A stretch of 64,000 nucleotides of DNA. Origin: Octopus vulgaris. Taxonomy: Eukaryota. The translations under genes were made by a program, and so were the position numbers. The notes below the pieces were generated by a model. The model ran no database searches. It saw only the letters and a program-made list of their open reading frames with translations, and was not told the DNA's origin. How positions within the stretch are numbered: the stretch's first letter is position 1; every line of letters begins with the position of its first letter. The stretch is from contig OX597821.1 of NCBI GenBank assembly GCA_951406725.2, forward strand, positions 15,500,001 to 15,564,000, read 5' to 3'. Shown here one piece after another: positions 6,951-17,337 of this stretch.

Positions 6951-7186
6951 ATACCTATTTCTTTATTACCCACAAGGAGCTAAACACAGAAGGGACAAAC
7001 AAGGACAGACATAGGCATTAAGTCGATTACATCGACCCCAGTGCGTAACTGGTACTTAATTTATCGAACCCGAAAGGATGAAAGGCAAAGTCGACCTCGG
7101 TGAAATTTTAACTCACAACGTAACGCAGATGAAATACCGCTAAGCATTTCGCCCGGCGCGCTAATGTTTCTGCCAGCTCGCCGCCT
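6951..7186 (-). mobile_element. SINE family D, full length
   Basis: The reverse complement matches 5684-5906 along its whole length. Confidence 0.92.
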
Positions 7187-7198
7187 AAATATGGAAGC

Positions 7199-7270
7199 CT
7201 CACCGGCGGGGAATCTAATCCCGGTCTCCCGCGTGACAGGCGGGGATACTTACCACTATACTACCGAGGA
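7199..7270 (-). pseudogene. tRNA-Asp(GTC), probable pseudogene
   Basis: TCCTCGGTAGTATAGTGGTAAGTATCCCCGCCTGTCACGCGGGAGACCGGGATTAGATTCCCCGCCGGTGAG is near-identical to metazoan tRNA-Asp. The B box GTTCGA is mutated to ATTAGA, the acceptor stem has a C:T mismatch, and no T4 terminator follows immediately. Confidence 0.88.
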
Positions 7271-7648
7271 AGATTATATACCGAGTATAAGTATATCCAG
7301 TATAAGATCACAGATAATTGGAGAAAAACACAAAAGAAAATAGAGAAAATTATTCGTTGCCAGTCCGCTTACGTACGTTTCGGATAATTTAGTATTACAT
7401 AATTATCGATCAAAATTTCTTCGACTAAGATCAAGAAATTTAAAATCAACATATTATAAAAGTTTTTCTATTCGAATAAAATGTAAAATTACTTCATCGC
7501 AGTATTAAGTGACGTTAAGATATCTGAAACCAGCGTAAGCTGATTAAGAATGTGTAATTCTCCATTCCTTTTGTTGACATACATACATGCATACATACAC
7601 ACGTGACCGGAAACTTATCGTACTCATGTTACTTATGTGTAGATTATA

Positions 7649-7892
7649 TCTTTATATATAAAAGTCAAGTTGTGTGTCTGTCTCCTACGATTTTGATTCC
7701 TAACTACTCCCACATTTTGTGGTGCAGTTTAACCAAAACCGGGTATCTTATAGTCGTGATTCATATCGAGCCCTTCTGGATATTAGCGCGCGTCTACGAT
7801 GAGTCTACGATTTAAAAAAAAAATCACCATCATTTTTTTCCATTTTAATGCATTTTTTCGCTATTATATAAGGGAAGTAACTCTCTAAAAAT
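7649..7892 (+). mobile_element. Possible Helitron-like 5' terminal fragment
   Basis: Starts TCtttatatataaaagtcaagttgtgtgtctgtc, resembling 5' ends of non-autonomous invertebrate Helitrons. It abuts a headless SINE tail. Confidence 0.35.
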
Positions 7893-8029
7893 GTCACTCT
7901 TTCTTCTGTTGGCCTGCTCGCTCAGCCAGCGGGATGGCGTCATTCGAAGGCTAAAACAATGCGAACGCATTGAGACCAGCGAATGTGTAACAACGTTTGA
8001 TGGGCTGGTCGGTCACGTGATCATGTGAT
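7893..8029 (+). mobile_element. Headless SINE tail (tail type 3)
   Basis: ctgttggcctgctcgct...ggtcggtcacgtgatcatgtgata matches about 12755-12885. Confidence 0.88.
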
Positions 8030-8245
8030 ATACGACGTACTTTTGTATTACTCTATGCTAACACCCAGAACAATTCACAGGTGTATGTAGTTGATAATTA
8101 GCAGCAAGAGAAGGACCGAAAACTATCGTTTCGTCTTGGTTCGCTGACTTTATAATCTTTACTTATTAGCTAGCATTGTCTTTCATAATACTAGCAAGGA
8201 ATTTACAGGCAAAGCTAAATAGAAAAGCAATTGTTTGATGATATA

Positions 8246-8708
8246 GGCGCAGGAGTGGGTATGTGGTAAGTACCTTGCTAAGCAACCACATGGTTCCGGG
8301 TTCAGTCCCACTGCGTGGCATCTTGGGCAACTGTCTTCTGCTATAGCCCCGGGCCGACCAATGCCTTGTGAGTGGATTTGGTAGACGGAAACTGAAAGAA
8401 GCCTGTCGTATATATATATATATATATATATATATATATATATATATATATATATATATGTGTGTGTGTGTGTGTGTATGTGTGTGTGTTTGTGTGTGTG
8501 TGTTTGTCCCCCTAGCATTGCTTGACAACCGATGCTGGTGTGTTTAAGTCCCCGTCACTTAGCGGTTCGGCAAAAGTGACCCATAAAATGAATACTGGGC
8601 TTACAAAGAATAAGTCCCGGGGTCGATTTGCTCGACTAAAGGCGGTGCTCCAGCATGGCCGCAGTCAAATGACTGAAACAAGTAAAAGAGAAAAAAAAGA
8701 GAAAGAGA
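8246..8708 (+). mobile_element. SINE family A, full length
   Basis: Head ggcgcaggagtgg, internal (TA)n(TG)n, tail ggcggtgctccagcatggccgcagtcaaatgactgaaacaagtaaaagag. Confidence 0.95.
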
Positions 8709-14640: not shown

Positions 14641-14950
14641 CTTGGGCAAGTAAGTGTCTTCTATTATAGCATCGTGCCAACCAAAGATTTCTGAGTGGAT
14701 TTCGAAAACGGAAACTGAAATAAACCCATCTTGTATGTGTGTGTGTGTGTGTGTGTGTCTCCCACACATCACCTCTTGACAACTGGTGCTGATGCCATTA
14801 CGTCCCCGTAAACAAGTTATTCGCCAAAAGGAACCGACAGAACAAGCACTAGGCTTTAAAAAGTAAATCCTAAGGTCCATTTGTTCGAGTAAAACCATTC
14901 AAAGCAGTGCACCAGTATGGCCGCCATGGAAACAACTGAAACAAGTAAAA
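14640..14950 (+). mobile_element. SINE family A variant, 5' truncated
   Basis: cttgggcaagt...acggaaactgaaa...cttgacaactggtgctg...ccagtatggcc...actgaaacaagtaaaa. Confidence 0.8.
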
Positions 14951-14969
14951 TATTAATACAACATTAATG

Positions 14970-15186
14970 CATACATACATACAGACAGACAGACAGACAG
15001 GCAGGCAGGCATACAGACAGGCAGGCATACAGACAGGCAGGCATACAAACAGGCAGGTATACAGACAGGCAGGCAGGCAGGCAGGCAGGCAGGCAGGCAG
15101 ACAGGCAGAGTAGCTAGCTACATAGATAGATAGATAGATAGATAGATAGATAGATAGATAGATAGATAGATAGATAGATAGATAGG
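14970..15186. repeat. Compound tetranucleotide array CATA-CAGA-CAGG-TAGC-GATA
   Basis: Direct reading. Confidence 0.95.
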
Positions 15187-15274
15187 TAGAGGGAGGGAGA
15201 GGGAGGGCGATAGACAGACAGATAGAAAAAGAAAGAGGGAGAGAGAGTGGATGCATGGATAAATCTATAAATAT

Positions 15275-16517
15275 GTTTCTTTATTAGCCACACAGGGTTG
15301 CACACAGATAGAACAAATTACAAGGTAGAGCTTTTCTTTTGGGGGTAAAAAAAAAAGAGGGGGTGGTTTTCGATCAAAAGGGATCGTAAAAAGAAAGAAA
15401 GAGGACAAAAAAGGGGGGAAGGGGGAGAGGAAAAAAATTGATCAATAGGGATCGTTATCACAGAAATGTCAATATCAAGTGTAAAGGGGAGGACAGGTGA
15501 AGTTTACCCGTGGACAGAAAAGCCTACGAAAAAGACCACGGTAACCTCGGTCAATGTTATATTTCTTTTTTTTTTTTTTTTTGCAAATAAGCAACTCTCT
15601 GTATTAATTTTTACGGTTCATAGAATCATAGTCAAGGTGGCTTCGTCATTCATACGTGCCATCCTTGCTACATTCACCAATCTTTTTTAAAACATTCGCT
15701 AGACAAAACTTGCCTCTCTACTCTCACTTTCCTCTTCAAGTGATACTTGAAGAAGTTGATGAGAGATTGACCAGAGAGGAAAGTGTTTGTCTCTAATCCT
15801 TTCAGGCGCGTCCACCAGATACATTCTTTCGCCATAGCCACAAGTATGATAAAAATAGCTCTTCCTTCCCGTTTGAAGGAAGGAAGCGTGACGATATTAA
15901 CGATAGACTCGGCTGATAAACCGACACGTCCCACACGTGACAGCAGTCGTTCGACATAAGCCCACATTTCGGAAATTGTTGGACACTGCACGATTGCGTG
16001 CAGAGCGGTTTCGTCGCTCTGCCCGCATCTCGGGCAGGTCGGCTCCGTGTTTCTCGAGCCATGACTATAGAGCTTATCCCGAACGGGTAGCGCTTCTCGG
16101 TAGCACCGCCAGGCCAGGGATCTCTGGAAGTTGTCCATAGGTCCCGGGCCGAAAGTCGTTTGAAACAGGCGGGTCAGGTATTCCTCGTCGACGCCCAGGT
16201 TTGCCCCGAGATCGTCGTCGTACCTCCCCTCCACTAATCCCCTATAGAATGCTTTGGTTGTGTTGAAGTCACTCAAGGTCGACCCGGGACGGCAGAGTTG
16301 CTTGAGAGCAACGCGACACCCGCGGTGCCATTCGCCCTTCCTCGGCCTCTTTTTGATCCACGACTGCAGTTCGGTCATGGGGACGAGTTGCGGGAATGCG
16401 TGCCTCACAAACGGCGACCACACCTGTTCACCGTCGTCTACATAGAGCCGGAGTTGTCGCAGTCTCAGCGCGTGTCTGCGCATCATCAACCACGGCATGC
16501 CCAGCCCTCCTTTTAAC
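15275..16517 (-). mobile_element. Tx1/L1-clade non-LTR retrotransposon, 5' truncated (copy 1)
   Basis: Open frame 16498-15674 preceded by LKGGLG. It carries a zf-RVT-type motif (CPRCGQSDETALHAIVQCP) and a pyrimidine-rich 3' UTR ending aataaagaaac. Confidence 0.9.
15674..16498 (-). CDS. C-terminal part of Tx1-like ORF2 (post-RT region with CCHC zinc finger); fragment only
   Basis: 274 uninterrupted GC-rich codons: FQRSLAWRCYREALPV...CPRC...HAIVQC. Confidence 0.8.
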   Translation of the reverse strand: MPWLMMRRHALRLRQLRLYVDDGEQVWSPFVRHAFPQLVPMTELQSWIKKRPRKGEWHRGCRVALKQLCRPGSTLSDFNTTKAFYRGLVEGRYDDDLGANLGVDEEYLTRLFQTTFGPGPMDNFQRSLAWRCYREALPVRDKLYSHGSRNTEPTCPRCGQSDETALHAIVQCPTISEMWAYVERLLSRVGRVGLSAESIVNIVTLPSFKREGRAIFIILVAMAKECIWWTRLKGLETNTFLSGQSLINFFKYHLKRKVRVERQVLSSECFKKDW

Positions 16518-16590
16518 AGATAGATAGATAGATAGATAGATAGATAGATAGATAGATAGATAGATAGATAGATAGATAGATAGATAGATA
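16518..16590. repeat. (GATA)n separating the two Tx1-like copies
   Basis: Pure GATA run. Confidence 0.98.
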
Positions 16591-16591
16591 A

Positions 16592-17337
16592 GTTTCTTTA
16601 TTGGTCACACAGGCCTGCACACAGATGGGACAAGTTACAAGGTAGAGCTTTTCTTTTGGGGGATGATGAAAACAAAAAACAAAAGAAAAAAAAGGGGGTG
16701 GCGTAGGTTTTCGATCAAGAGGGATCGAAGAAAAGGACAAAATAAATAAATAAATAAATAAATAAATAAAAGAAAAAGAAAAAAAAAGGAAAACGAACAA
16801 AAGAAAAGAGAAATGAAAAAAGAGGAAAAAAGGGGAAAAAGAAGGGGAAGAGGAAAAAAAGAGAACGATCAATAGGAATCGTGTATCACAGTGTTATGAT
16901 ATATGGTGTAAAGGGGAAAGCAAGTAAGGTTTATCCGTGGGAAGAAAAGCCTACGAAAAAGACCACGGTAACCTTGGTCAATATTGTTATATGTTACCAC
17001 GTTTGTTTGCAAGTGGGTAACCCTCTGTTTTCAATTTCTGGGTTCATAGGATTATGCTCAAGGTGGCTTCGTCATTCATACGTGCCATCCTTGCTACATT
17101 CACCCATCGTTTTTTTAAACATTCGCTAGACAAAACTTGCCTCTCTACTCTCACTTTCCTCTTCAAGTGGTACTTGAAGAAGTTGATGAGAGATTGACCA
17201 GAGAGGAAAGTGTTTGTCTCCAATCCTTTCAGACGCGTCCACCAGATACATTATTTCGCCATAGCCACAAGGATTATGAAAATAGCTCTTCCTTCCCGTT
17301 TGAAGGAAGGAGGCGTGACGATATTAACGATAGACTC
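16592..17337 (-). mobile_element. Tx1/L1-clade element, shorter 5'-truncated copy 2
   Basis: About 17055-17337 is near-identical to about 15630-15910. It has the same 3' terminus and GATA arrays on both sides. Confidence 0.9.

Follow-up and report, generated by a model that had tools for sequence, protein, structure and literature searches.

The window analysed here, a 64,000-nt stretch of the 2.8-Gb Octopus vulgaris genome (GCA_951406725.2, contig OX597821.1, positions 15,500,001 to 15,564,000, forward strand), holds copies of an abundant short interspersed element (SINE), SINE-D, together with remnants of a Tx1-like long interspersed element (LINE) whose 3′ end resembles the SINE tail; the names SINE-D, F1–F7 and tails A, B and D are labels of this analysis. 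A SINE-D copy occupies 6956–7186 on the minus strand. The element, non-coding and ~230 bp long, starts with AGGCGGCGAGC, ends with AATAAAGAAATA, and comprises a head with A- and B-box-like motifs, a common body, and a putatively Tx1-derived tail of 62 nt (6956–7017), in which a hairpin with a 4-bp stem and a 5-nt loop is predicted immediately 5′ of AATAAAGAAA (6968–6980; one stem base is mutated here). The motifs (A, 7166–7175; B, 7104–7114) were matched by eye to the A-box and B-box consensus, with extended spacing, and between them lies an internal site, GCTTAGC/GGTATTTC (7131–7145), that serves as a target of both LINE F7 and SINE-D. A 12-bp target-site duplication (11/12 identical; 3′ copy, 6944–6955, starting GGTAT; 5′ copy, 7271–7282) encloses the SINE and a 5′ extension discussed below. 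On the plus strand, another copy (5683–5906) has a 9-bp duplication, GGTATTTAA, at 5675–5683 and 5907–5915, and a nested array (4573–5051) contains two D tails, one ending at 4796 and the other at 4959, both of which run on into GGTATTTCG and body sequence. The LINE remnants are on the minus strand: a 5′-truncated copy of subfamily F1 (16591–17290), with the end of open reading frame 2 (ORF2), the 3′ untranslated region (UTR) and the tail, has (TATC)n on both sides, and the microsatellite at 16517–16590, the target of F1, F4 and F5, separates it from a second 5′-truncated F1 copy with a zf-RVT domain and tail (15274–16516). A first-pass annotation had joined the SINE and LINE ends and proposed a Tx1-clade enzyme as the mobilising agent. 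Both ends it quoted are present on the minus strand, with the SINE ending at 6956 and the LINE fragment at 16591; the further tails it placed at 4740–4797 and 5860–5906 also exist, but on the plus strand, and the third Tx1-like tail, at 15274, had been overlooked.

SINE-D is abundant: an exact 24-mer of its tail has 34,320 genome matches, compared with none for the reversed control. A sample of 80 evenly picked 10-kb stretches (800 kb) contained 66 D-tail matches, 54 with the body upstream and 51 of these with a readable end, from which a copy number of ~190,000 can be extrapolated (54 per 800 kb). The SINE body carries exchangeable tails in this sample (A, 7; B, 24; D, 30; other, 10), and may resemble the CORE-SINEs with their central CORE domain. 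For tail A (GGCCTTGTGCC, often with an ATT-repeat end) a partner LINE was not found in the random sample. Tail B agrees at 20/22 bases with the 3′ end (~20756–20777) of a fragment in the window that we take, from a motif, to be CR1-like, which would give this SINE body a second LINE partner; CR1-like ORF2 C-terminal fragments lie at 20100–20800 (plus strand) and 61915–62200 (minus strand).

The resemblance between the D tail and the Tx1-like LINE 3′ end extends to majority sequences. In an ungapped comparison of SINE with F1 (30 SINE and 29 LINE best-match copies), 35/44 terminal bases are identical, and 24 of the 32 bases upstream of AATAAA agree, a score reached by 0/20,000 dinucleotide shuffles (mean 11.3, maximum 21). 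Among 667 distinct AATAAA sites in the sequence examined, all those scoring at least 22 are SINE or LINE tails. When the AATAAAGAAA end is left out and the final 80 nt are aligned locally, the match is weaker (equalled by 45/5,000 shuffles), and the tail signal therefore rests on register. For single window copies treated in the same way, the SINE against the LINE at 16591 is equalled by 2/5,000 shuffles, and the SINE against the LINE at 15274 alone is not significant (777/5,000 shuffles reach the score). Against family F7, introduced below, the C subtype of the SINE shares 20/23 bases upstream of AATAAA (0/20,000 block shuffles reach 20). Over the 35-nt end, F7 matches the C and T subtypes at 31/35 and 29/35 positions, F1 at 27 and 29, and F5 at 28 and 28; because the F1 and F5 ends score so close, F7 is not singled out by tail identity alone, but by its hairpin register and target. 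Within the window and the 800 kb, no better match from another LINE clade was seen, an outcome that the annotation had named as adverse to its proposal: the CR1-like end in the window scores below the shuffle mean, and the readable non-SINE matches to the D tail in the 800 kb were Tx1-like tails.

The LINE lineage to which these tails belong comprises related families with distinct targets. F1 is ~6.2 kb long with ORF1 and ORF2, the latter with Exo_endo_phos (the apurinic/apyrimidinic endonuclease, APE), RVT_1 and zf-RVT domains, and among solved structures the nearest to it in sequence is human L1 ORF2p (E=1e-56, versus 8e-22 for R2). Tx1-clade ORF1 proteins carry a CCHC knuckle; the zf-CCHC match of F1 ORF1 reaches 17.6 bits, below the 20.8 cut-off. 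The closest named proteins come from Argonauta hians, and no database match to the lineage proteins is named Tx1. In a FastTree phylogeny (three best-covered copies per family, fragments below 150 aa excluded, unnamed outgroups), the families and the Argonauta proteins form one clade in which F7 is sister to F6 (support 0.979); F7 and F1 are 56% identical over 425 aa. F1 tails adjoin TATC in 29/33 cases, and most F1 5′ ends also lie within (TATC)n; F5 (25/30 in TATC) and F4 behave likewise, F6 occupies (CT)n (CTCT, 22/26), and F2 is found mostly in (ATT)n, with some copies in (AAT)n, (ATC)n and (TTC)n. Tx1 is the likely clade, because the available text of PMC13295347 gives Tx1 and R1 as the only APE LINEs with reported site specificity; this assignment is drawn from domain architecture, L1 affinity and site specificity, the tree containing no named Tx1 elements. 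An old fragment of F2 lies at 38780–39900 (minus strand).

A predicted 4-bp hairpin followed by AATAAAGAAA ends every family of the lineage, with AATAAAAAG in its place in F4. The stem GCCC/GGGY and its 5-nt loop are identical in the SINE and F7, whereas F2 shows a compensatory swap (GGCC/GGCC) and F1 has AGCC/GGCT with a 6-nt loop; a stem is predicted before AAUAAAG in SINE-C, SINE-G, F7, F1 and F2, with weak energies of -4.5 to -7 kcal/mol. In F1, F5, F6 and F7, as in the SINE, the junction with the target lies 2 nt beyond AATAAAGAAA. At four unique sites, F1/F5 duplications of 14–21 bp start at this +2 position (one at +1 or +2), and SINE-D duplications of 11–26 bp, detectable in 40/126 full-length units (loci that are partly best matches and non-random), start at +2 as well. 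The element end is fixed there, since the terminal TA is present in the target in only 3/40 SINE duplications. Judged from these junctions, the SINE and the LINEs appear to share an insertion signature, consisting of the +2 junction, the F7 site, and duplication lengths that overlap those of F1/F5.

The targets separate the SINE from the LINE family that neighbours it in the window. Of 51 sampled junctions, 19 fall in the SINE-internal GGTATTTCG site, the commonest target, and the others in further GGTA sites (4), SINE-internal AGAAWCG (2), other AGA (8), TATA (4) or other sequence (14). None of the 51 sampled copies and one of 216 collected tails adjoin TATC, and the window's (TATC)n family is therefore unlikely to be the main partner. 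Among 23 T-type copies with duplications, the target consensus is a pyrimidine (22/23) followed by G (20), G (19), T (23) and A (21), and the base bias fades after ~6 bases. Subtype predicts target: the T and G types use GGTA over AGA by 22 to 2, and the C type by 1 to 8 (Fisher p=2.7e-5). SINE-typical GG or AG occurs in the 3′ duplication copy, where the target has other bases, in 4/40 cases, a weak hint at read-through. Four further loci (L011, L021, L022 and L218) form a second hotspot, where SINE-D copies with 17–19-bp duplications occupy GGTACTT sites read from the other strand of the SINE body.

A LINE family with the matching target was found by pattern search. A LINE-like hairpin followed by GGTA gave 201 matches, and SINE variants made up nearly all of the 100 listed; one listed locus, L304, instead held the 3′ fragment of a LINE inserted at the SINE site, and a search from it without the target bases led to F7 (30 loci, 27 with a tail). 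F7 inserts into SINEs at C/GGTATTTCG, with 23/27 tailed copies running into the SINE B-box region and the remaining four into GGTATT-like sequence; among the hosts are SINE-D (11) and tail-A SINEs (7). The 27-nt F7 end, used as a pattern whose last base was restricted to not-A, has 70 exact matches, each followed by a (S)GTATTTC-like 8-mer, beginning CG in 49, GG in 17 and otherwise in 4 (hand count). A stop-free frame of 1134 aa is kept in three F7 copies, the protein evidence covering the part from the reverse transcriptase to the C terminus. Three F7 copies (L381, L384 and L386) lie inside another repeat, which begins GGTATT(T/G)CGTCTGTGTG. The search that gave the 1134-aa frames also returned a group at 70–72% identity, a young family in which 1132-aa frames are numerous and often follow one another on the same strand at intervals of ~5.3 kb; this spacing suggests head-to-tail arrays, and the family is probably F6 or a close relative. 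Two other leads were set aside. F6, in which the 5′ half of the tail and the TA end are similar to those of the SINE, was ruled out by its (CT)n target. Of 699 matches from a search for a LINE that combines the SINE's exact 20-mer with different upstream sequence, the 100 listed were SINE variants or truncations, and a search of this kind would itself miss about three-quarters of these families.

Because hairpin register and commonest target site are common to SINE-D and F7, the SINE is likely moved by a Tx1-like enzyme, probably that of F7. On this sequence evidence, mobilisation by the lineage is very probable, and F7, rather than the neighbouring (TATC)n family, is the probable main partner. 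The proposal of Tx1-clade mobilisation thus stands for the lineage, upheld by tail, junction register and duplications, but the family that the window displays is unlikely to be the main partner. Ages were also compared. Median divergence is 2.7, 5.3 and 5.7% for SINE subtypes T, G and C (sample), 4.0% for F7 and 0.8% for F1 (both from best matches), such that the SINE and F7 overlap in age. Of the comparisons suggested by the annotation, target and age fit F7, duplication lengths overlap those of F1/F5, and the TATC target of F1 is almost never used by the SINE. In arrays at the SINE site, the upstream unit is less diverged in 56/72 cases and more diverged in 15/72 (72 with a measurable next unit), a test that used a young-subtype consensus and so is biased toward this result; by subtype, a younger unit (T or G) precedes an older type in 20 cases and follows it in 3. 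This order fits repeated insertion at a single site with reuse of the host head.

That bias, and the non-random origin of the F7 divergence, weigh against the assignment to F7, as do several other observations. Most sampled SINE copies (28/51) lie away from GGTA, and the C subtype prefers AGA. C stands at +3, the first target base, in 49/70 exact F7 tails versus 1/216 SINE tails, and the youngest F7 subfamily and the young SINE therefore pick non-identical sites. F7 is far rarer (70 exact matches versus 34,320, by different patterns), and no 5′ end, target duplication or full-length copy was recovered among the F7 copies seen. Finally, over the 44-nt tail, F5, a TATC family, matches better than F7 (37/44 versus 31–33/44), although F5 was found via a SINE-derived pattern. 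The mismatched first base, the non-GGTA copies and the link between subtype and target leave room for further sister families or for RNA-steered targeting.

With F7 as partner, the cycle may be pictured as follows. The tail derives from the 3′ UTR of a LINE of this lineage, and the SINE would be transcribed by RNA polymerase III from its internal boxes. ORF2 would bind the hairpin and AAUAAAGAAA, nick the bottom strand at a Y/GGTAT(TT) site, and start reverse transcription 2 nt past the motif. Where the target is itself a SINE, the complementary DNA probably joins the homologous head of its host, producing head-(body-tail)n arrays. Every insertion would provide one more landing site, so SINE-D likely supplies sites for F7 and for itself. 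For the C subtype, at AGA sites, either a sister family outside the sample or guidance by read-through RNA would probably be responsible. A more tentative extension makes the cycle a closed loop: a Tx1-like LINE would insert in the promoter region of the commonest SINE, and one branch of that SINE, having captured the LINE hairpin, would insert into its own family, with part of the choice of landing site passed on by read-through RNA that pairs with the nicked target.

This extension borders on a rival explanation, in which any enzyme of the lineage, including the (TATC)n families of the window, moves the SINE, and the target is set mostly by read-through RNA pairing with nicked DNA, such that each donor lineage inherits its landing site. 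The hairpin-AATAAAGAAA end common to all families would allow this, as would the best 44-nt match being F5, and the same mechanism would account for the dependence of target on subtype (22 to 2 versus 1 to 8), for the SINE-typical GG/AG in 4/40 3′ duplication copies, and for a C at +3 in 49/70 F7 tails, yet in only 6/32 for that host variant. However, SINE copies in TATC are nearly absent (1/216), the best matches of F1 (0.8%) are younger than most SINE copies, the target bias fades beyond ~6 bases, and Tx1 target choice is described as mainly endonuclease-determined in the available text of PMC4494074; we consider this explanation unlikely.

Two other explanations are less likely still. Regular 184-bp arrays are present and most array junctions lack a separate duplication, as expected if the arrays arose by tandem duplication or from multimers moved as a unit, in which case the site shared with F7 would overstate targeting. 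This is very improbable given the 20-to-3 unit order, the clean nested insertions with duplications at L105 and L019, the same GGTAT consensus for monomers at unique sites, and the use of the site by F7. The tail might instead be a relic of an old Tx1 capture in a SINE now moved by a CR1, L2 or RTE clade LINE, and in this regard sister SINEs with the same body do carry a CR1-like tail, and active RTE, CR1 and Dong-R4 families are reported in octopus genomes (PMC13282606, Table 1, in the part available). But against the CR1-like end in the window the D tail scores lower than the mean of the shuffles, its readable non-SINE matches in 800 kb were Tx1-like, its +2 end is fixed as in the LINEs (TA in target, 3/40), and the target is common to SINE and F7, so this account, already largely refuted, is hardly credible.

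The SINE had further been described as tRNA-derived, a claim without support in the typical copy, which has no tRNA match to E=10 with Rfam models; a head derived from small nuclear RNA (snRNA) is equally unsupported, with no snRNA match in the window region or a typical SINE-D copy. A genuine tRNA-Asp(GTC) match (7197–7271, minus strand) is the 5′ extension of one SINE-D copy only, and its candidacy as the SINE-D head was rejected, ARAGORN at a lowered threshold finding tRNA-Asp once and nine scattered other types in 212 upstream flanks. Since the 12-bp duplication encloses tRNA-Asp, an 11-nt spacer and the SINE together (6944–7282, minus strand), the tRNA-Asp is a passenger, and the unit is a chimeric insertion, formed via template switching or tRNA-gene read-through. 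Rfam microRNA matches in the region were dismissed as artefacts of simple repeats, with scores under the gathering thresholds; such matches, and spurious long reading frames, come from ~600 bp of (TA)n at 18730–19330 and from long, degenerate TA/TG satellites in several places.

[quoted passage not shown] The sister families, alike in tail design but with targets as different as TATC, ATT, CT and a SINE site, offer a ready set for separating endonuclease from RNA control of target choice, for which RNA 3′ flanks of GGUAUUUC, AGAAAC and UAUC would be the distinguishing choices. Mobilisation by this lineage would point to what probably drives a SINE of ~190,000 copies. It would also give the few known L1-group LINEs with stringent 3′-end recognition a Tx1-like member from an animal, bearing on whether stringency is ancestral in that group, a question raised in the available parts of PMC3472496 and PMC3747384.

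SINE-D may be one of the OK/OR1/OR2 families. These are tRNA-derived octopus SINEs, reportedly described by Ohshima and Okada in 1994. Like SINE-D, they are abundant octopus SINEs with a common body and exchangeable tails. In the available text, OR2 is called a CORE SINE (PMC4758252, PMC5804259) and tRNA-Core SINEs are said to dominate octopus genomes (PMC8967140), with no partner LINE named in those portions of the three sources; 13 recently active L1-Tx1 families are listed in octopus, without partner analysis, in the part of PMC13282606 available. The literature searched, including accessible text of PMC10294476 and PMC3531059, contained no tail-sharing Tx1 pair or SINE-targeting Tx1, with Repbase, Dfam, Ohshima and Okada 1994 and the SINEBase supplement, any of which may hold SINE-D or F7, lying outside it ('TX1' in the accessible text of PMC4176376 is the name of a protein construct, not a clade). 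The stringent pairs UnaSINE/UnaL2 and ZfL2-1/2 (PMC4176376), and the 58 of Ohshima (PMC3747384), have a LINE-derived stem-loop tail, as does SINE-D, with recognition by ORF2 presumed. They belong mostly to CR1, L2 and RTE, whereas the SINE-D partner would be Tx1-like and site-specific, without a poly(A) or terminal repeat of its own; in the portion of PMC3747384 available, only three SINEs with L1-clade tails are listed, from maize and Chlamydomonas, and 'Tx1' is confined to the text on phylogeny. The lineage itself, placed beside named families by description, recalls Kibi (TC)n, Koshi (TTC)n, Keno (U2) and Tx1 in Tx1D, APE-RT (endonuclease and reverse transcriptase) families each on a microsatellite or repeat, F6 on (CT)n resembling Kibi in particular; the available text of PMC4494074 lists neither (TATC)n nor (ATT)n nor a SINE-internal site as a Tx1 target.

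One of the closest known systems is the crocodilian SINEU, which was inferred to be moved by Tx1 because SINEU and Tx1-Mar prefer the same repeat target (Kojima 2015, PMC4494074, as far as available, here and below). The remark that Tx1 partners are rarely reported agrees with the absence of tail-sharing pairs from the literature searched, but a Tx1-mobilised SINE has been proposed already, on target evidence. As with SINE-D and F7, the target is common to SINE and LINE and their ages overlap, and different Tx1 families have been proposed for different SINE subfamilies (PMC4494074). SINEU differs in its snRNA heads and in its target, the DNA transposon Mariner-N4_AMi; the argument there was built on target and shared heads, while SINE-D shares tail and hairpin, and its target is the SINE family itself (PMC4494074).

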